Shown here: positions 545-15,748 of the stretch, in pieces
Numbering within the stretch: position 1 is the stretch's first letter
Layout of the letters: each line of letters begins with the position of its first letter
Source of the DNA: a virus
Lineage: Duplodnaviria; Heunggongvirae; Uroviricota; Caudoviricetes
Direction: 5' to 3' (one strand)
Virus record (IMG/VR): IMGVR_UViG_2651869694_000011
DNA length: 17,082 bases
The notes under the pieces: model-generated
The model's database searches: none
The model's input: only the letters and a program-made list of their open reading frames with translations
Told to the model about the DNA's origin: nothing
Translations under genes and position numbers: made by a program

Positions 545-1663
545 TCAAACAACCAATTTAACCCATTCCTGACCACGAGTATCGTTATAACGATCGGTGG
601 TTGCCTGGACTTTATGTCCCAGTAATGTTTTTGTATCAATACCCTGCGCGCGGTACAGTCGTTCTGACAGGGAGCGTTGTTCATGAAATGTTGGCGGAGT
701 TTTTCCTGCTGGTGGAGTTATCCCAGCCAGATCCCGTGCTTTGGCAAAGTAGTCGCTCAGGTTGTCTTTACTCATCGGCTTTGGTTGTTTCTGGTGCCGA
801 CTATGGATTAGATATGGACTTAATATTCTGTCTCGGCACCCATCAATAACTTCTTTTAACGTTATCCCAATGGCATCACAGCGTAGTGTAAGCGGTAACG
901 CCAGACGCATTCCGGTTTTTCCCTGGGTGATATGCAAGTGTTCGTTCCACACATCTGAAAAACGCATGTGGCAAATGTCATCACGGCGCTGACCAGTAAC
1001 AATCGCAAGAAGCATTGCGTTACGGATAAAGTGTTTTTCAGGCGTTGCGTTGTAAATTTTTTGCCAGTCTTCCAGGGTGAGCCTGGCTCTAGTTACTTTA
1101 GGGATCGGTTTACGGGTAGCCTCCGGAGGATTCCATCCAGGAGGAACTTCCCCTGCATGCTGTGCTTCTTTATAAATATCAACCCATAATCCACGATTTA
1201 CTCTCGCTGTGCTGACCATGTCTTTATCCAGCCACTCATCCAGTATTAATGCAAAGTCTCTTACTTCCAGTTCTTTCAATGGGTGGTTTCCCAGACGGGA
1301 AACCAGGTATGCAGCCATTCGGGCTTTTTCTTTGTGAGTTGTAGCTGCAATATCTCCATTTTTCAGTCGCGTGTCCTGTATTTTCAGATATCGATCAACC
1401 CATGCCTTTAATCTGATACCCCGACGTTTTGTTGCTGACGGACTTTCATCAATTTTGCGCATGAAATATTCAGCTTCTGCTGCAGCTATCCGCTGATTGG
1501 CTGTGGAAGCGATTTTTTCTGCCTTACCTTTGTCTGTTCCGAGTCCGTGAAATTTTCCAGTCACAGGATTTTTATACTGGTAGTAAACTCTGCCAGTTCT
1601 GCGATCAAACTTTTCGTAAAGACCGGCTACGTCAGTGCTGTTTTTTCGTGGCCTCGGTGACAT
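545..1663 (-). CDS. int: Phage tyrosine integrase, lambda Int family (closest in my memory to e14/phage 21 integrases)
   Basis: 372-aa ORF. N-terminus MSPRPRKN...GLYEKFDRRTGRVYYQYKNPVTGKFHGLGTD and C-terminal catalytic region HEQRSLSERLY...LLGHK...TDRYNDTRGQEW match the lambda-type Int architecture (R..HxxR..Y). AAGGAG lies 10 nt upstream of the ATG. Overlaps the xis 3' end as in lambda. Confidence 0.95.
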   Translation of the reverse strand: MSPRPRKNSTDVAGLYEKFDRRTGRVYYQYKNPVTGKFHGLGTDKGKAEKIASTANQRIAAAEAEYFMRKIDESPSATKRRGIRLKAWVDRYLKIQDTRLKNGDIAATTHKEKARMAAYLVSRLGNHPLKELEVRDFALILDEWLDKDMVSTARVNRGLWVDIYKEAQHAGEVPPGWNPPEATRKPIPKVTRARLTLEDWQKIYNATPEKHFIRNAMLLAIVTGQRRDDICHMRFSDVWNEHLHITQGKTGMRLALPLTLRCDAIGITLKEVIDGCRDRILSPYLIHSRHQKQPKPMSKDNLSDYFAKARDLAGITPPAGKTPPTFHEQRSLSERLYRAQGIDTKTLLGHKVQATTDRYNDTRGQEWVKLVV

Positions 1664-1901
1664 GAGTTAAAATCTCCTTCAGTGCATCATCATCGCCAGT
1701 ATGAATTTCCGGCGCAATTCCCGTTTCACCAGGCCCAACAAATACTGCTCGGCGATCTATCAGCCAACGCCCACGAATTTTTTGTGGTCTTGGAACGATG
1801 TATCCTAGTTTTCCGTATTTCACCAGGGTAGTGTTTGTTATTGGGAGACTGAACCGTTTTGGTTTCCACTCGTCGAGCGTTATCAGGTACTGTTCGCTCA
1901 T
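1632..1901 (-). CDS. xis: Excisionase (Xis)
   Basis: Small ORF directly upstream of int and overlapping it. YLTLDEWKPKRFSLPITNTTLVKYGKLGYIVPRPQKIRGRWLIDRRAV resembles lambda Xis. I place the start at the ATG at 1901 (GGAG 8 nt upstream) rather than the in-frame GTG at 1910 used by the ORF track. Confidence 0.85.
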   Translation of the reverse strand: MSEQYLITLDEWKPKRFSLPITNTTLVKYGKLGYIVPRPQKIRGRWLIDRRAVFVGPGETGIAPEIHTGDDDALKEILTHVTEATKKQH

Positions 1902-1962
1902 GGCTATCACTCCGGAACGCGCCAGTTGCAGAATATCAACGACAACTGGCGACGGTTGAACA

Positions 1963-4434
1963 TTAAAAATCAGCCTGACTCGGGATCAGTTTTTGCCAGA
2001 TAACTGAAACGTATTTTGCCTGGTAACGGGCGTCATCAAGTGCATTATGGCGCTCACCTTCGAATGGAATAGCCGTTCTGGCATCGAAGTCTATGGCTTT
2101 CCCCAGCTCAACGATTGTGCGTACATCGCGATCGTTGTAGTAACGCCACGGGCAGGGGATCCCCTGCCGTTCGTATGAACGGCGCAAAATCGTGTTGTCG
2201 AAGTTGGCTCCATTTCCCCAGACCTGAACAAAAAATTCACCGGAGTTTTCGTCGATAAATTCCCGCAATTGTAACAGTGCATCATCTAACGGGATTTCAT
2301 CGGTCATAATGGCAGATTGCGCTTCGCGTGATTGCTTAAGCCACCATTTAATGGTGTCCCGATCAATGACTCCGCCAGCAGTTTCCAGATCGATAGTCTT
2401 ACTAAATTCCGGTCCCATATCTCCGGTTTGCGGATCGAAAAATATTGCACCTATTGAGATGATCGGGGCATCAGGATTTTTTCCCATGGTTTCAAGGTCG
2501 ATCATTAGATGGTCACACGTCCTGCTGGTGGATGTGATTTCTTGATGACCGTTCACCTTAATTGAGTGATCTGCCGTCTCGCCAGTTTCATTATCGCTAT
2601 CGTGATGCTGATTGCCGCCAGTGTTCTCCTTGTGTGGATGTTCAGCGCCTTCCATTTTCTCCGGATCATCTTCCTGAACTTCAACCTGATACTCTTCATC
2701 GAATGTTTCCTGGTATGTTGCGTCGCCCATCACTGCGCCACAATCAGGGCAGTTGCCGCCGCCGGTCTGACCGCAGGCGGTGCAGACCTTTTCCACTTCC
2801 TGTTGCACCACTGGTTCAGGCTGTTTCGTTTCTGGCTCGTTTTGTAACGCATTTGGGCTGTTTTGTTCCGCTTTCTGGTAGTTCCGTTCCGATTCATGCT
2901 GGTTCTGGTTCACAGAATCGCGGGTCTGGATCCCCTTAACCCATTTCGGATCATTCGGGTCGCTAATCCCTGCAACAAATTCACCACGAGAGACAGCAAG
3001 CAACTCATCGGCGTCAGGCTGGCTGATATTGGCTGCCTGCATAATTTTGTTTACTTCGTCAGCGGTAACTTTTACCGACCCTGGTTGTGCGGTCGTGTCA
3101 GATGCACCAGTATTTTGTTGTGAACCTGAGTATGTACCGTTTTTGCGGGCGAAATATTCTTCTTTCGTGATTTCAGTAGCCCCAGCAGACAGCGCCTTAT
3201 CCAGACCAGAAAGTTTGTTTGCGCGACCGTATTTTTCGCCATCCTTGTCGGTGAAGAGGAAGTAGAACGGCCCCTCACGCTCTACAGATGGTTCGACTTC
3301 CACTTTGCATTCGGTTTTTTCGTTGTCCGGAATTGCCGTTTCCACTGCATCAGTTTCTGGTACTGGCGACGAGAGAGTATCAGTTGCGCTCTGATTTGTT
3401 CCTTCATCTTCAAACACGCCCTTTGTAGTCAGGTATTCAGTAATGTATTTGTTCAGTGCCACAGGGTCTTTGTGAATGTCGATCGGACGTTCACGGACAA
3501 GGCCAAAAATAGTCTGGCGGTCGTAGCGAAGGGCATCAGGCTGTTTGCGCATTGATGCCGAGATACGCTTCCAGTCTTCGCGGTCGTTGTCGATAACTTC
3601 ATTTTTTGCCCAGCGATGGATGCTGCCGTCAATGTTTCCGGCATCCACATCACCAGGCCAGAGAGCGTAGGCCAGTTCGTCATCCAGTGTTTTCCATGTC
3701 TGCTTGTATTCGCGATGAATGGCAGCAATGACCGGGTTGATTTTTCCTGTTGAATTTTCAGTGTGCTGTTGATTGGCTCTGGCGCGGGCGAGATCAACAA
3801 CAGACGTGTATTTTCCGGCTTCCTTGCGTTCACCTTCGCGACGTTTTTTCCAGATGCGCATCTCTGCCTGAATTTCGGGCCATTTGGCACCAGGCTTACA
3901 TTTATGCTTAACCCACCCGATGGCATGCAGCTTAAGCTCCGGATACATAGCGTTAACTTCTGGCATTTTCATCAACGCTTCAACGATATGGCCGTCGAAT
4001 GTTGCCATGTCTTCCTGCAACAATTCCTGTGCGCTAATCACCATATCAACAGTGATGTTTTCACATGTGTCGAACTTAACCATGACAGCGTTCTGTACTT
4101 CAGGGGCTAGGTTGTCAAAAGTGACGTTCATCGGATCGGATTCAGTCTCAACCGGGACAAAAGAAGCAGACTCCTCATCCCAGCGGTTTTCCTGCATATA
4201 TTCAGCATCCCATGAATCGAGGGCAGGGCGGGGTATGCCAGGTTTATCCTCGCAGACAATAAATTTATAAGCGCAGTCCTGAGCAGCCGGATAATGTTCC
4301 AGGAATTGCCAGTGAAATTTTGCGCGGGCGCGACATTCATCACCGGCTTCAATGGCAGTGGCTACAGCGACTGCACCTTCTTCCTTTATTGCCTGTTCGT
4401 CCGGAATGGCGGCGCAAATAAAGACTTTACTCAT
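1963..4434 (-). CDS. Large prophage exonuclease: RecE-like N-terminal/central region fused to a C-terminal DnaQ-like (DEDDh) 3'-5' exonuclease domain
   Basis: 823-aa ORF. The C-terminal ~200 aa carry the three DEDDh motifs (IDLETMG; WGNGANFDNTIL; HNALDDARYQAKY). The central segment LLAVSRGEFVAGISDPNDPKWVKGIQTRD matches a conserved stretch of E. coli RecE as I recall it. CTACGQTGGGNCPDCG is a CxxC...CxxC zinc-ribbon-like motif. GAGGT lies 4 nt upstream of the ATG. Confidence 0.85.
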   Translation of the reverse strand: MSKVFICAAIPDEQAIKEEGAVAVATAIEAGDECRARAKFHWQFLEHYPAAQDCAYKFIVCEDKPGIPRPALDSWDAEYMQENRWDEESASFVPVETESDPMNVTFDNLAPEVQNAVMVKFDTCENITVDMVISAQELLQEDMATFDGHIVEALMKMPEVNAMYPELKLHAIGWVKHKCKPGAKWPEIQAEMRIWKKRREGERKEAGKYTSVVDLARARANQQHTENSTGKINPVIAAIHREYKQTWKTLDDELAYALWPGDVDAGNIDGSIHRWAKNEVIDNDREDWKRISASMRKQPDALRYDRQTIFGLVRERPIDIHKDPVALNKYITEYLTTKGVFEDEGTNQSATDTLSSPVPETDAVETAIPDNEKTECKVEVEPSVEREGPFYFLFTDKDGEKYGRANKLSGLDKALSAGATEITKEEYFARKNGTYSGSQQNTGASDTTAQPGSVKVTADEVNKIMQAANISQPDADELLAVSRGEFVAGISDPNDPKWVKGIQTRDSVNQNQHESERNYQKAEQNSPNALQNEPETKQPEPVVQQEVEKVCTACGQTGGGNCPDCGAVMGDATYQETFDEEYQVEVQEDDPEKMEGAEHPHKENTGGNQHHDSDNETGETADHSIKVNGHQEITSTSRTCDHLMIDLETMGKNPDAPIISIGAIFFDPQTGDMGPEFSKTIDLETAGGVIDRDTIKWWLKQSREAQSAIMTDEIPLDDALLQLREFIDENSGEFFVQVWGNGANFDNTILRRSYERQGIPCPWRYYNDRDVRTIVELGKAIDFDARTAIPFEGERHNALDDARYQAKYVSVIWQKLIPSQADF

Positions 4435-4526
4435 TTTGTTTTACCTCATTACAGATTTAAGGGTGAACAAATCCCTGCCATTGCTGGCATATAAGAATGA
4501 AACCGGATATTTATTACGGAACTGTT

Positions 4527-4718
4527 TTAAAGACCTGCCGGGATTTCGTTATTATCCTGGTGAATAACTTTATCGACCGGGTAACAGTTACCGGGAATTT
4601 TCTGTTCGGTTGCTGCAGTCACACACTCCTGCATTGTCCTGTGAACACTGACTGCAATATCAACTGGCTCTCCGGAAACAAGAAAAACTGTCAGAACAAG
4701 TGCAAATGCTGTATTCAT
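4527..4718 (-). CDS. ydfD: YdfD-like small membrane protein (63 aa)
   Basis: Start ATG overlaps the dicB stop in an ATGA arrangement (plus-strand tcat at 4715-4718). N-terminal hydrophobic segment MNTAFALVLTVFLVSGEP. Sequence and length match my recollection of Qin prophage YdfD. The track ORF 4527..4772 is a longer in-frame extension. Confidence 0.7.
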   Translation of the reverse strand: MNTAFALVLTVFLVSGEPVDIAVSVHRTMQECVTAATEQKIPGNCYPVDKVIHQDNNEIPAGL

Positions 4719-4903
4719 TGCCAGCATCCTTTTTGTATCGGACGTAAACGGGCCAGCATTGAAAGAATGCATATTTTATTTAATAACTCCCGTTCGTGTT
4801 TTCTCTTGTTAATGGCATCTTCAGTAAATACAGGGTTACTGATAGTGACACCAATTTCAAAACAACCTTCAGACGTATTAACGTTTGGTAATAACGTTTC
4901 CAT
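4715..4903 (-). CDS. dicB: DicB-like cell division inhibitor (62 aa)
   Basis: Internal ATG of track ORF 4715..5008 gives METLLPNVNTSEGCFEIGVTISNPVFTEDAINKRKHERELLNKICILSMLARLRPIQKGCWQ, near-identical to E. coli Qin DicB as I recall it. dicF lies immediately upstream, as in Qin. Confidence 0.85.
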   Translation of the reverse strand: METLLPNVNTSEGCFEIGVTISNPVFTEDAINKRKHERELLNKICILSMLARLRPIQKGCWQ

Positions 4904-5072
4904 TATCGCGTCCTCAACAATGAATTTTGTGATGCGGTGCCTGGTGCCTCCAGGTGACGTTAACCAGTTAACAATTAACGCCGGATACAGAGAATCCCCC
5001 CATAACACTGTTTTTGGTTTTAACTGTTCCGCGTGCGCTCAGCCGCATTCACCGCATCACAAAATTCACTTT

Positions 5073-5130
5073 AAAAAGGGCGGCAGAGCAGTCACGGAGT
5101 AAAACTGATACCGCCAAACGTCACCAGAAA
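5073..5130 (-). ncRNA. dicF: DicF small regulatory RNA
   Basis: The reverse complement of 5073-5130 reads tttctggtgacgtttggcggtatcagttttactccgtgactgctctgccgccctttttaa, which matches the E. coli DicF sRNA sequence from memory, including the terminal hairpin and U-run. Position directly upstream of dicB is as in the Qin dicB operon. Confidence 0.8.
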
Positions 5131-5726: not shown

Positions 5727-5770
5727 AATCTAAAAGTATTTAGTTTTTCAGTCAAGATAAATCTAGATTA
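5727..5770 (-). promoter_or_regulatory. Candidate leftward early promoter (pL-like) with OL-like operator palindromes
   Basis: Minus-strand -35 TTGACT (plus coords 5750-5755) and -10 TAGATT (5727-5732) with 17-bp spacing. ATCTAAAAGTATTTAG (5728-5743) is near-identical to the OR palindrome at 6534-6551. A second palindrome AATCTAGATT sits at 5760-5769. Confidence 0.45.
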
Positions 5771-6791: not shown

Positions 6792-7213
6792 AAATCAAAC
6801 ATGAGCACATCCGCATGGCGATCAATGCCTGGGCCTATCCGGACGGTGAGAAAGTTCCTGCAGCTGAAATAGCCCGGACTTATTTCGAGCTGGGGATGAC
6901 GTTCCCGGAACTGTACGACGACAGCCATCCGGAAGCCCTGGCTCGTAATACCCAGAAAATTTTCCGTTGGCTGGATAAAGACACCCCTGATGCTGTTGAA
7001 AAAATTCAGGCTCTGTTACCGGCGATCGAAAAGGCAATGCCGCCTCTGCTGGTGGCCCGTATGCGCAGTCACAGCTCTGAATATTACCGTGAGATCGTCG
7101 AACGGAGGGATCGGCTGGTGAAAGATGTGGATGATTTTGTCGCAGCGGCGATCGCCTGGGGCACCCTGACTAACAGTGGTGGTCAGCCAGGTAATGCTGT
7201 TGTCGTGCATTGA
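6788..7213 (+). CDS. ydaT: YdaT-like protein (CII-analogue regulator of Rac-type immunity regions)
   Basis: 141-aa ORF whose ATG overlaps the cro-like stop (ATGA). The sequence MKIKHEHIRMAINAWAYPDGEKVPAAEIARTYFELGMTFPELYDDSHPEALARNTQKIFRW matches my recollection of Rac YdaT. SD aaggggga upstream. Confidence 0.8.
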   Translation: MKIKHEHIRMAINAWAYPDGEKVPAAEIARTYFELGMTFPELYDDSHPEALARNTQKIFRWLDKDTPDAVEKIQALLPAIEKAMPPLLVARMRSHSSEYYREIVERRDRLVKDVDDFVAAAIAWGTLTNSGGQPGNAVVVH

Positions 7214-7281: not shown

Positions 7282-8319
7282 ATGGCTAATGCCTGGCTCA
7301 GATTGTGGCATGACATGCCAAATGATCCCAAATGGCGAACCATTGCCAGGGTCTCAGGACAGCCAATCGCAACAGTGATGGCGGTGTATATCCACCTTCT
7401 GGTGAGTGCGTCACGAAATGTCACGACATGTCACGGCGTGTCACTACGTGGTCACATTGATGTCACGACGGAAGATTTAGCAAGTGCGCTTGATGTGACG
7501 GAAGACGTGATTGATTCAATTTTGCATGCAATGCAGGGGCGAGTTCTGGATGGTGATCTTATTTCCGGATGGGAAAAACGCCAGGTGATGAAGGAGGATA
7601 ACGGTAATGTTTCGCAAACCGCAAAATCCCCGGCAGAGCGCAAGAGAGCGCAGCGGGAGCGGGAAAGACTGCGGAAGCAGAACACTGATTGTCACGATGA
7701 GTCACGACGCGTCACGCATATGTCACGACAAATCACGACAGATACAGATACAGATAAAGAATTAAACCCCACACATAACGCGCGCATGCGCGAGAGTGCT
7801 ACGACCGGTGAGTTGAATGACGCGTCGTTGCAGACAGCCGAACCTGAATACCTGGACGGCCTGAGCGAACCGATCGGGAAATTTCCGATGACTGGAGTCT
7901 GGCAACCGTCGCCGGATTTTCGACAGCGGGCAGCAGTGTGGGGTATGGCTCTGCCTGAGCCTGAGTTTACACCTGCTGAGCTTGCCGCATTCCGGGATTA
8001 CTGGATGGCGGAGGGGAAGGTTTTCACGCAGGTTCAGTGGGAGCAGAAATTTGCCCGCCACGTGCAGCACGTCAGGGCACAGGTAAAACCAGTCAGCAAG
8101 GGGGTAAGCCATGCAGCACCAGGTGGCACCGCATCACGGGCAGTTCAGGAAATCCGGGCTGCACGCGAACAGTGGGAACGTGAAAACGGATTTATCAGCA
8201 ACGGAAACGGCCTGGAAGCTGTGGGAGCTTATGGGGGAGGTGTATTCGAACCGCTGGACTCAGAAGAACGGGGCTGCGCCGTCGAAACTCTGGATTGCTC
8301 AGATTGGCGCGATGACTGA
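7282..8319 (+). CDS. Replication initiator, lambda O-like / DnaT-like replisome organiser, carrying origin iterons in its coding sequence
   Basis: 345-aa ORF from the ATG at 7282 (GAGGTGAG upstream; the track start 7276 is a GTG). Two clusters of 10-bp-phased GTCACG repeats inside the gene. Followed by a P-like gene, as in lambda O-P. Confidence 0.8.
   Translation: MANAWLRLWHDMPNDPKWRTIARVSGQPIATVMAVYIHLLVSASRNVTTCHGVSLRGHIDVTTEDLASALDVTEDVIDSILHAMQGRVLDGDLISGWEKRQVMKEDNGNVSQTAKSPAERKRAQRERERLRKQNTDCHDESRRVTHMSRQITTDTDTDKELNPTHNARMRESATTGELNDASLQTAEPEYLDGLSEPIGKFPMTGVWQPSPDFRQRAAVWGMALPEPEFTPAELAAFRDYWMAEGKVFTQVQWEQKFARHVQHVRAQVKPVSKGVSHAAPGGTASRAVQEIRAAREQWERENGFISNGNGLEAVGAYGGGVFEPLDSEERGCAVETLDCSDWRDD
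7408..7470. repeat. Iteron cluster A: six direct repeats of GTCAC(G/T/A) at ~10-bp phasing
   Basis: GTCACG at 7410, 7420, 7430 and 7462; GTCACT at 7440; GTCACA at 7451. Confidence 0.6.
7689..7766. repeat. Iteron cluster B: five direct repeats of (G/A)TCACG at 10-bp phasing, followed by GATACA repeats and an A+T-rich stretch (candidate origin)
   Basis: GTCACG at 7691, 7701, 7711 and 7722; ATCACG at 7732; then gatacagatacagataaagaattaaa (7741-7766). Confidence 0.6.
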
Positions 8320-8807: not shown

Positions 8808-8960
8808 ATGGAAACCGTTTTTGACGCACTGAAAGCACTGAAAAAAGCCTCGTCGCACGAGATTGCAGCCCGTCTTGAAATCAGCCGTGACGATGCTGTT
8901 ACCGAACTCTGGAAGCTGAAGCGTCGTGGCGAAGCTGATAATGTGGTGGCTGACGAGTGA
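8808..8960 (+). CDS. Small hypothetical protein (50 aa), possible winged-helix fold; may be the 5' part of a frameshifted longer gene
   Basis: Strong RBS (GGGAGG then 8 nt to ATG at 8808). Protein [50 protein letters not shown]. The fold assignment is an inference. Confidence 0.55.
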
Positions 8961-9495
8961 GGCAACTGAAGCGGCCCCAAAAACCACTGCAGAGATGCTG
9001 ATTAACGCGATTGAACAGCATGGTCCTCAGTCGGCTGACGAACTGGCGTTAATGTTCGGGATTACCTCCCGCCGGGCGAATTCATCACTGGCGATGGCTG
9101 TCAGCAAAGGTCGTCTGATTCGCGTAAATCAGGACGGTAAATATCGTTACTGCATACCGGGCGATAATTTACCGGCAGAGCCGAAAGCTGCATCGGTAAC
9201 GGAAACCGATGGTAAAGCCTTTCCTCAGCCGGCAGGTGTTGCGTTACCAGTCCGGGAAGCGGAAACACAGGAAGAAATTAAAACTGAAAGTGTGGCGGTC
9301 ACAGTGCAGTCACAGTCGTCGTTCATCAGAAAGCATCCGGATGGTCTGATTTTACCATCGCTGCATGTGGCTAACCGCGAGCTGCGCCGGGCAAAAGGTC
9401 AGGTTCAGAAGTGGGAGCGCTTATGCGCCGCGCTGCGGGAAATTAATAAGCATCGTGATGTCATACAGAAAATAACGACAGGAGATAACGGGTAA
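8941..9495 (+). CDS. Hypothetical protein; its N-terminal region repeats the pattern of the preceding small ORF
   Basis: ORF in the +1 frame relative to 8808..8960, overlapping its last 20 nt. Contains [45 protein letters not shown], similar in pattern to the upstream ORF. Start is uncertain (GTG 8926, ATG 8941 or ATG 8995). Confidence 0.5.
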
Positions 9496-11559: not shown

Positions 11560-11734
11560 TGCTGCGGGTGCTTGAGGCTGTCTGCCTCGGGCATGCCACC
11601 GTAAGGCAGACAGAGAAAAGCCCCAGTTAACATTACGCGTCCTGCAAGACGCTTAACATTAATCTGAGGCCCAATCTATGCTTCACAAACGTAGGTTAGC
11701 CTCTTACGCGCCGAAAGGCAAGGAGAAGCAGGTT

Positions 11735-11890
11735 ATGAAGCAGCAAAAGGCGATGTTAATCGCCCTGATCGTCATCTGTTTAACCGTCATAGTGACGGCA
11801 CTGGTAACGAGGAAAGACCTCTGCGAGGTACGAATCCGAACCGGCCAGACGGAGGTCGCTGTCTTCACAGCTTACGAACCTGAGGAGTAA
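11735..11890 (+). CDS. hokD: Hok/Gef family type I toxin (HokD/RelF-like, 51 aa)
   Basis: MKQQKAMLIALIVICLTVIVTALVTRKDLCEVRIRTGQTEVAVFTAYEPEE matches the Hok family and E. coli HokD as recalled. SD AAGGAGAAG 9 nt upstream. Track ORF 11678..11890 is an in-frame upstream extension. Confidence 0.9.
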   Translation: MKQQKAMLIALIVICLTVIVTALVTRKDLCEVRIRTGQTEVAVFTAYEPEE

Positions 11891-15111: not shown

Positions 15112-15187
15112 GGCCCTTTAGCTCAGTGGTGAGAGCGAGCGACTCATAATCGCCAGGTCGCTGGTTCAAATCCAGCAAGGGCCACCA
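15112..15187 (+). tRNA. tRNA with CAU anticodon, most similar to E. coli tRNA-Ile2 (ileX/ileZ type); could alternatively be annotated tRNA-Met
   Basis: Manual cloverleaf: acceptor GGCCCTT/AAGGGCC, D-arm GCTC/GAGC, anticodon loop CTCATAA, T-loop GGTTCAAATCC, 3' CCA encoded. One A-C mismatch at the base of the anticodon stem. Confidence 0.9.
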
Positions 15188-15267: not shown

Positions 15268-15344
15268 GCGTTGTTAGCTCAGCCGGACAGAGCAATTGCC
15301 TTCTAAGCAATCGGTCACTGGTTCGAATCCAGTACAACGCACCA
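15268..15344 (+). tRNA. tRNA-Arg (anticodon UCU, reads AGA/AGG)
   Basis: Manual cloverleaf: acceptor GCGTTGT/ACAACGC, D-arm GCTC/GAGC, anticodon stem ATTGC/GCAAT with loop CTTCTAA, T-arm ACTGG-TTCGAAT-CCAGT, discriminator A plus CCA. Confidence 0.9.
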
Positions 15345-15662
15345 CACCACACTTATCTGCCCTGACTCTCTTTTGCGGGCTTTTTATTACAGGAAAGACA
15401 CCGGACAGTGAAATGTTAAATGCCTCACAATTCAGGCAGTTGACTGTTGCCTGACATGCTGAGCGTTTGTTAAAAAAATCCTGCATGATGAATCCCCCTG
15501 AGCGGCGGGGCATAATGACAGATGTTTGGTTGCGTATTGTATAGGCAAGTTGCGGATTCTGTCTGGTCATTGCAGAATTCACCGGGAGGCACCCGGCATC
15601 ATGCTGTATACAGAGATTAGGCATATATCCAGGCTTCTCATCGCAGGAGCCTTTTTACATGC

Positions 15663-15688
15663 AAAAAAAAGCCCGAGTGGGTTCGGGC
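15663..15688 (-). terminator. Rho-independent terminator oriented on the minus strand, with no annotated upstream minus-strand gene
   Basis: Plus strand shows an A8 run (15663-15670) then hairpin gcccga-gtgggt-tcgggc (15671-15688), which reads as hairpin plus U8 on the minus strand. Confidence 0.55.
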
Positions 15689-15748
15689 AACAGCATGAGA
15701 TACTTGCATTGTCATTTTTATCGTGTGGATTTTAACCAGGGTTTATAA

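Follow-up and report, generated by a model that had tools for sequence, protein, structure and literature searches.

What does a predicted 3′-5′ exonuclease do in the operon position that RecE (exonuclease VIII) occupies in the Rac prophage of E. coli K-12? This question is raised by the IMG/VR virus record IMGVR_UViG_2651869694_000011, a stretch of 17,082 nucleotides (hereafter the window) that represents one end of a lambdoid prophage inserted beside potC/potD. Its early-left operon contains an open reading frame (ORF) of 823 codons that encodes a YdfE/RecE-type body fused to a DEDDh exonuclease. The protein is modular and under selection, and it has an intact predicted DEDDh active site. 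Very probably, it consists of five small folded modules on acidic linkers followed by a DexA-type DEDDh end, and this architecture arose by a cassette swap.

The C-terminal domain was examined by profile, sequence, and structure comparisons. A Pfam scan matches residues 642-813 to PF16473 (DexA/Rv2179c-like) with an E-value of 2.3e-67 and a score of 226.5 bits against a gathering cut-off of 27, and the match covers profile positions 2-177 of 177. The catalytic residues D646 and E648 (DLET), D746 (FDN), and H796 and D801 (HNALDD) show little or no variation among 75 distinct homologues drawn from 84 loci. A sequence search of PDB with the protein retrieved only T4 DexA (8kel/8ken, E 1.5e-6). 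When residues 352-823 were modelled with AlphaFold2 (AF2), the DEDDh part received predicted local distance difference test (pLDDT) values of 70-92, and Foldseek relates it with a probability of 1.00 to DexA (8kel), RNase T, Orn, and a Cas2-linked DnaQ domain. T4 DexA is the closest PDB entry by sequence and by fold, and it shares the family, the catalytic residues, and about 26% identity with residues 641-823. An initial annotation, made from the sequence alone, had recognized a DnaQ-type domain by its DEDDh motifs, and both Pfam and Foldseek agree with this assignment. The domain would therefore be expected to act with 3′-5′ polarity and two-metal catalysis, as is typical of its family. A comparison of the protein with the PADLOC-DB defence models gave just a weak, generic hit to a CRISPR-associated DEDDh model (E 1.7e-5).

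The remainder of the protein resembles RecE. BLASTP aligns residues 262-625 with residues 278-591 of K-12 RecE (E 5e-63) at 40% identity overall and about 80% from residue 474 on, and this is the central stretch in which the initial annotation had noted a likeness to RecE. The two proteins also have in common the zinc ribbon, the acidic tracts, and their position within the early-left operon. The RecE equivalog model of NCBIfam (NF007259) scores 282 bits against a cut-off of 1269, with model positions 271-602 of 877 matched. Homology stops essentially at the start of the nuclease part of RecE (PMC11611040). Both ends differ. At the N-terminus, RecE carries PF06630 whereas the 823-residue protein carries YdfE_N. 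At the C-terminus, RecE ends in a 5′-3′ PD-(D/E)XK domain (PF12684) that is not found by Pfam in the 823-residue protein, where the DEDDh domain stands in place of the usual nuclease fold as first proposed. The families PF27430 (YdfE_N) and PF27432 (YdfE_C) are precomputed matches on homologues 89-98% identical to our query.

Structure prediction divides the body into small modules (Table 1). Residues 1-350 are modelled with a mean pLDDT of 91.7 as two modules, A and B, joined by a flexible linker, and beyond this region there are further small modules on disordered linkers. Module A corresponds to the YdfE_N region of near-identical proteins and has no structural relative in PDB or BFVD. Although confidently modelled, the fold of residues 1-350 has no match among known folds. 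Module C also occurs in other body homologues, and its confidently predicted part spans residues ~390-431. Module D carries the motif RGEFVxGISDPNDPKW, which is almost the same in RecE, and is predicted to include two helices at residues ~458-482. The zinc ribbon is modelled at low confidence and reads CTACGQTGGGNCPDC in the 823-residue protein and CNACGQTGGDNCPDC in RecE; its cysteines are kept in 74-75 of the 75 distinct homologues. The presence of this ribbon had been noted previously, but its cysteine pairs are separated by seven residues and not by the nine that were claimed. The long acidic, low-complexity tracts reported at the same time are evident at residues 361-400 (30% Asp plus Glu) and 561-600 (with 30-33% as the range for both), where the chain is predicted to be disordered and evolves in a near-neutral manner. 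The tract at residues 576-640 terminates in a linker of 20 residues that is peculiar to the DEDDh form.

The pattern of selection follows this division. Ratios of nonsynonymous to synonymous substitution rates (dN/dS), calculated by segment for the 75 homologues, are 0.10-0.22 in every folded module, versus 0.41-1.6 in the linkers (about 0.8-1.6 in three of the four and 0.41 in the fourth). Purifying selection acts on every folded module but not on the linkers. Together with the nearly invariant catalytic and zinc-binding residues, this pattern indicates that the whole protein is maintained, rather than the nuclease alone. Of 87 loci searched, 81 preserve the complete 823-codon ORF.

Evidence for the cassette swap comes from relatives that share the body and differ in the nuclease. 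A search with residues 1-640 yielded many near-identical proteins of 823-826 residues with PF27430, PF27432, and PF16473. The same search recovered proteins of 900 and 1057 residues (P0092 and P0048) in which 97-98% of the body (residues 1-622) is matched at 92-94% identity and PF12684 takes the place of PF16473. Contigs with genes of this PF12684 form have RecT directly 3′ of the exonuclease, then a Lar-family and/or DUF1187 gene, Exc, and Int, and one such locus has a dicB-DUF1482 pair upstream, as in the window. In contrast, the gene for the 823-residue protein is not followed by recT or by a lar/ralR-type or rcbA-type gene. When compared by blastn with Rac recE (L003) and with two more loci (L004 and L005), DNA homology ends at nucleotide 2568 in all three cases. 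To the right of this breakpoint is the shared body, and to its left are the 20-residue linker and then the DEDDh cassette. A Chi site at 2524-2531 lies inside the linker, 37 bp from the end of homology, which may be a coincidence.

These comparisons indicate that a block comprising the PD-(D/E)XK domain and recT, perhaps with the lar/ralR-type and rcbA-type genes, was very probably replaced at residue 622/623 by the DEDDh domain. The domain also exists on its own near the int end of other lambdoid phages. In the early-left operon of PhiR55_1, a free-standing DEDDh gene of 190 codons is 59% identical, is not fused to a RecE-type body, and begins at the fusion point (MNNLMIDLET); again there is no annealase. 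This gene is wrongly annotated as ‘exodeoxyribonuclease VIII’. The simplest history, as judged from these sequences, would be the in-frame fusion of a dexA-like accessory gene, once free-standing, to a RecE-type body, which ousted the PD-(D/E)XK domain together with recT.

A search of 1.84 billion clusters for homologues of the body yielded just 249 representatives. Among these, the body is a mosaic in which modules A to E occur in varied combinations, and the C-termini are DEDDh domains, PD-(D/E)XK domains, or nothing that Pfam recognizes. Eight proteins of 700-790 residues (P0125, P0129, P0134, P0140, P0165, P0183, P0187, and P0216) contain modules A, B, and/or C and have no Pfam-recognizable C-terminal domain in their last 300 residues. 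These are probably the nuclease-less ‘RecE-2’ proteins described elsewhere (PMC12315714).

The exonuclease had also been described as an orphan without an annealase partner. When the unassigned ORFs between int and the Q-like antiterminator gene were scanned with Pfam or PHROG, no member of the RecT, Red-beta, Erf, or Rad52-type families emerged, and a prophage of 98.8% identity likewise has no annealase family in its RefSeq annotation. Only 52 nucleotides separate the stop codon from xis, and therefore the window has no room for an annealase gene at this site. With the whole protein as query, 80 viral contigs and 8 genome loci were collected, and in these we searched for RecT alone. No RecT homologue lies within 6 kb in any of the 84 loci that have a recognizable DEDDh domain; the sole locus with RecT carries the PD-(D/E)XK form. 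In most DEDDh loci, an integrase gene (of at least three types overall) starts about 300-370 bp 3′ of the stop codon, which leaves no space for another gene. Thus, the partner is indeed lacking, although the word orphan does not suit a gene that is itself common, as detailed below. A nuclease family whose members act in the 3′-5′ direction has the wrong polarity for single-strand annealing, and no annealing gene is adjacent. For these reasons, the 823-residue protein does not appear to be a two-component recombinase.

The distribution of Chi sites offers a view of how the carrier phages might recombine. Within the 17 kb of the window, the Chi site (GCTGGTGG) occurs eight times, including six times on the plus strand. 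In the 80 viral DEDDh loci there are 231 Chi sites in 782 kb (0.30 per kb), and 223 of them (96%) are on the strand opposite the gene. Early regions of the RecET type, by comparison, have 0-2 Chi sites per 10-12 kb (0-0.17 per kb). The DEDDh-carrier prophages fit the class of lambdoid phages with no Rec module and many Chi sites (PMC12315714). The richness and strong orientation of Chi in these carriers suggest that they leave recombination to RecBCD.

The best overall explanation for these observations, to which we assign about an even chance of being correct, is that the protein is a modular DexA-like exonuclease that acts on DNA 3′ ends, serves an accessory role, and is the product of the cassette swap. 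Nucleotides would be removed from free 3′ ends by two-metal catalysis involving D646, E648, D746, and D801, with H796 as the general base. Like T4 DexA or its E. coli homologue EcD, the enzyme might degrade or trim linear DNA, be it from a rival phage or from the broken host chromosome. The RecE-type body could contribute multimerization or delivery to DNA ends, while for the recombination that its growth requires the phage would depend on host RecBCD and the many oriented Chi sites. DexA is a proven DNA exonuclease, a member of PF16473, and the best PDB match, which supports a DNA substrate. The physiological role proposed here, degrading or trimming linear DNA, is a more tentative suggestion than the overall explanation and falls somewhat short of an even chance.

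EcD (‘HREX’) offers a functional precedent. It degrades DNA containing 5-hydroxymethylcytosine (5hmC) and protects against T4 (PMC12153337), belongs to PF16473, and is 39% identical to residues 641-823. DexA and EcD are free-standing proteins of 189-227 residues, whereas the domain studied here is fused to a body. We recovered EcD via the published primers as a protein of 189 residues with Ala78, as in PMC12153337. The possibility that EcD is the domain of the 823-residue protein itself was rejected, because the primers lead to this protein of a P2-like prophage, with an identity of only 39%. Its locus (L118, 5679-6248, minus strand; also L100, L105, L115, L116, and L121) is an early operon with the order Cox-like, DUF4761, EcD, Dam methylase, and DUF4406. 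PMC12153337 is silent on this prophage origin, and the operon is expected to be repressed in the lysogen, like that of the 823-residue protein.

Several points weigh against the preferred explanation. A preference for DNA over RNA cannot be read from sequence, and the namesake Rv2179c of Mycobacterium tuberculosis is an RNase. The residue pattern proposed for 5hmC recognition is absent: W152 of DexA, the Trp said to stack on 5hmC, is replaced by Tyr766 (kept in 72 of the 75 homologues), and the position of the acidic residue D169 is ambiguous between alignments. The tetramer residue D90, whose loss is part of the EcD pattern, is retained as D718. The specificity of EcD is thus not transferable. 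The apparent control by pL implies that the gene is silent in the lysogen, which is a poor fit with a standing defence role. A true recombination nuclease has the same body, and recombination phenotypes are known for full-length RecE (PMC11611040), which leaves some room for a recombination-linked role. Finally, the Chi comparison sets three or four RecET-type loci against DEDDh loci that are related to one another and not independent.

Among the alternatives, a role as an accessory to recombination or repair ranks next, although we consider it unlikely. In this scenario, the body would recruit a 3′-5′ exonuclease during lytic growth to stalled forks or double-strand ends, where 3′ tails or flaps would be trimmed for host RecA/RecBCD or for replication restart, such that one protein replaces RecET by drawing on host functions. 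The operon slot and the body are the same as those of RecE, whose body influences linear-linear recombination (PMC11611040), and the same prophage encodes RusA and a DUF968/HNH protein. DnaQ-like 3′-5′ nucleases have been described in lambdoid early-left operons, and in some lambdoid Rec modules DnaQ-type genes are tightly packed (PMC12315714). However, the same study does not count the sporadic DnaQ-type genes located very near int as Rec module genes, notes that they often coexist with full canonical modules, and points out that 3′-5′ exonucleases usually inhibit homologous recombination. In addition, the DEDDh domain is never linked to an annealase in the 84 loci searched for RecT, and its free-standing version behaves as a movable accessory gene.

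Less probable still is an exoribonuclease similar to Rv2179c, ISG20, or ‘TONDO’ that would trim or degrade RNA 3′ ends. Its targets might be host or phage transcripts, for example in processing of the DicF-dicB operon, or the genomes of RNA phages. Both Pfam and NCBI label the family as 3′-5′ exoribonucleases, RNase T and Orn are close fold matches, and the DicF small RNA (sRNA) is part of the same transcript. The label stems from one member, Rv2179c, which has the same PF16473 domain and is an exoribonuclease according to its Pfam description. T4 DexA itself scores above the PF16473 threshold, and so the label does not settle the substrate. Moreover, Rv2179c was not found by a direct PDB sequence search at E<=1, while DexA and EcD, both of them DNA exonucleases, are the characterized proteins closest to it in sequence and fold. 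Prophage-encoded TONDO proteins, which are ISG20-like DEDDh exonucleases with auxiliary domains, block RNA phages such as MS2 and Qbeta (PMC13344964), but that screen was limited to proteins of <500 residues and its authors set them apart from other defence-associated DEDDh domains. Two additional points disfavour an RNA substrate: the body is taken from a DNA exonuclease, and RNase T also cuts DNA.

A decaying RecET leftover with no function of its own, which might be imagined because many carrier prophages are defective and K-12 ydfE is cut by IS2, is effectively excluded by the intact ORFs, the nearly invariant catalytic and zinc-binding residues, the contrast in dN/dS between modules and linkers, and the number of genomic copies.

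A DexA-like DNA exonuclease is therefore placed ahead of a recombination helper, and the helper ahead of an RNase. There is also a more speculative generalization, which we regard as improbable. The RecE/YdfE body might be a general delivery platform for swappable nucleases, namely PD-(D/E)XK with RecT, DEDDh alone, or none that is recognizable. The DEDDh form, the version that predominates in E. coli, would then act as a nuclease for phage exclusion or defence, or else shape growth that depends on RecBCD/Chi, by a mechanism unlike those of defined defence systems. The body itself would have a novel fold, and its partner would explain the 600 N-terminal residues of RecE. The function of this large region, which the 823-residue protein shares, is listed as unknown in reviews of recombineering enzymes. 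Its binding partner would account for the different behaviour of full-length RecE and its nuclease domain and could help to improve recombineering tools. If the DEDDh form is an exclusion nuclease like EcD, then a very widespread prophage-borne defence would be added to the E. coli repertoire.

Table 1. Features of the exonuclease gene and its surroundings (window coordinates; residues refer to the 823-residue protein).
Feature	Position	Strand	Basis or remark	dN/dS
Exonuclease gene, 823 codons plus stop	1963..4434	-	ORF listing; ATG start; full-length match to PHROG 2082 ‘exonuclease’	
Module A, residues 1-205, alpha/beta part then helices	3820..4434	-	AF2 pLDDT 87-98	0.11
Module B, residues 246-345, all-helical, common to RecE (~278-350)	3400..3699	-	AF2 pLDDT 93-98; BLASTP	0.20
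Acidic disordered linker, residues 346-384	3283..3399	-	pLDDT <50	0.81
Module C, residues 385-440, small beta-hairpin/helix domain	3115..3282	-	AF2 pLDDT 73-95	0.10
Module D, residues 450-510, helical	2905..3087	-		0.16
Zinc ribbon CxxC-N7-CxxC, residues 551-565	2740..2784	-	Shared with K-12 RecE	0.13 (residues 548-575)
Acidic, His-rich disordered tract, residues 576-640	2515..2709	-	pLDDT <50	0.85
Point at which DNA homology to RecE-type genes ends, residue 622/623 (~RecE 588/589)	2566..2568	-	blastn	
DEDDh 3′-5′ exonuclease domain (predicted), residues 641-823 (PF16473, DexA/Rv2179c-like)	1966..2514	-	Pfam, motifs, model	0.22
Shine-Dalgarno GAGG, 9 nucleotides before the ATG at 4434	4444..4447	-	Read from sequence	
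pL-like sigma-70 consensus match, adjoins repressor gene	5727..5755	-	Consensus match only	
DUF1482/ydfD-like ORF	4527-4772	-	Upstream operon partner	
dicB	4715-5008 (as listed)	-	Upstream operon partner	
DicF sRNA	5078-5129	-	Upstream operon partner	
xis (excisionase)	~1632-1910	-	Directly downstream of exonuclease gene	
int	545-1663	-	Downstream of exonuclease gene	
Chi sites	708, 2524, 7048, 12563, 14449, 14766	+		
Chi sites	13021, 14787	-		

The gene order in the window, beginning on the int side, is int, xis, the 823-codon ORF, the DUF1482/ydfD-like ORF, dicB, DicF, a DUF1391 ORF, and a LexA-family repressor. These are followed by cro, YdaT-like, a DnaT-like replication gene, a P-like loader, small genes, hok/sok, DUF968 (HNH), RusA, the Q-like antiterminator, two tRNAs, and a gene for a SASA esterase. 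Upstream of the exonuclease gene, the only sigma-70-like site on its strand is the pL-like match at 5755-5727. No such site separates the exonuclease gene from its upstream neighbours, which makes it the last large gene of the early-left operon, and presumably it is co-transcribed from pL with DicF, dicB, and ydfD once the repressor is lost. This arrangement agrees with the placement of the gene after dicB-ydfD under the early leftward promoter that had been proposed initially. A separate promoter directly 5′ of the gene was considered and rejected, as none is present on the coding strand. Likewise, an internal start at Met644 that would release a free DEDDh domain was rejected because there is no Shine-Dalgarno sequence 5′ of this codon.

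The same order of dicF, dicB, ydfD, and the exonuclease gene is seen in the Qin prophage of K-12, where the gene is the pseudogene ydfE (b1577), the namesake of YdfE_N and YdfE_C. There, an IS2 element has truncated the gene such that everything past residue ~256-306 is missing, and K-12 is thus without the DEDDh domain. A literature search found no experimental study of the 823-residue protein and no functional study of ydfE/Qin.

To estimate abundance, DNA queries were compared with 5426 complete E. coli genomes. DNA for the DEDDh domain is present at 8111 places in 4069 genomes, or three quarters of the collection, and DNA for modules A and B at 6970 places in 4008 genomes. The cassette for the RecE nuclease and recT, in comparison, is found at 1841 places in 1750 genomes. 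The DEDDh form therefore outnumbers the RecET module in E. coli by about four to one, often with several copies per genome. As a sequence feature, the gene is ordinary and catalogued. It is a ubiquitous prophage gene that is already annotated, and the swap is visible in existing domain databases. PHROG 2082 spans the protein from end to end, and RefSeq names genes that are 98.9% identical ‘exonuclease’, ‘3′-5′ exonuclease’, or ‘3′-5′ exoribonuclease domain-containing protein’.

Some database entries for this family call for caution. Free-standing or fused DEDDh genes in phage records (L006 4998-5570; H24 and H43) are often labelled ‘exodeoxyribonuclease VIII’, which, for genes that lack the RecE nuclease fold, is a propagating annotation error. 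P0081, a database protein of 810 residues that bears the name ‘integrase’, combines the exonuclease with a tyrosine-recombinase domain; a frameshift or an error of gene calling over the exo-xis-int junction is the probable cause. One contig (L011, JAGZPX010000007.1) comes from a metagenome bin with the label Veillonella parvula. Its copy of the gene is of the Escherichia type, is accompanied by an IntR-like integrase, and is most likely a binning contaminant.

Other features of the window lie apart from the exonuclease gene. The early-right region includes a sok antitoxin RNA and a hokD-type toxin gene at 11566-11740 (plus strand). Matches in Rfam to the sRNAs STnc100 and AgvB (anti-GcvB) are located at 15454-15662 (plus strand) and 15664-15723 (minus strand), where they adjoin the tRNA genes at 15112-15184 and 15268-15341 and, within the late-promoter region, precede the gene for the SASA esterase. 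In addition, residues 16-89 of a DUF1627 protein (8926-9495, plus strand) give a sub-threshold match (E 3.9e-5) to the family of AlkZ-like DNA glycosylases.

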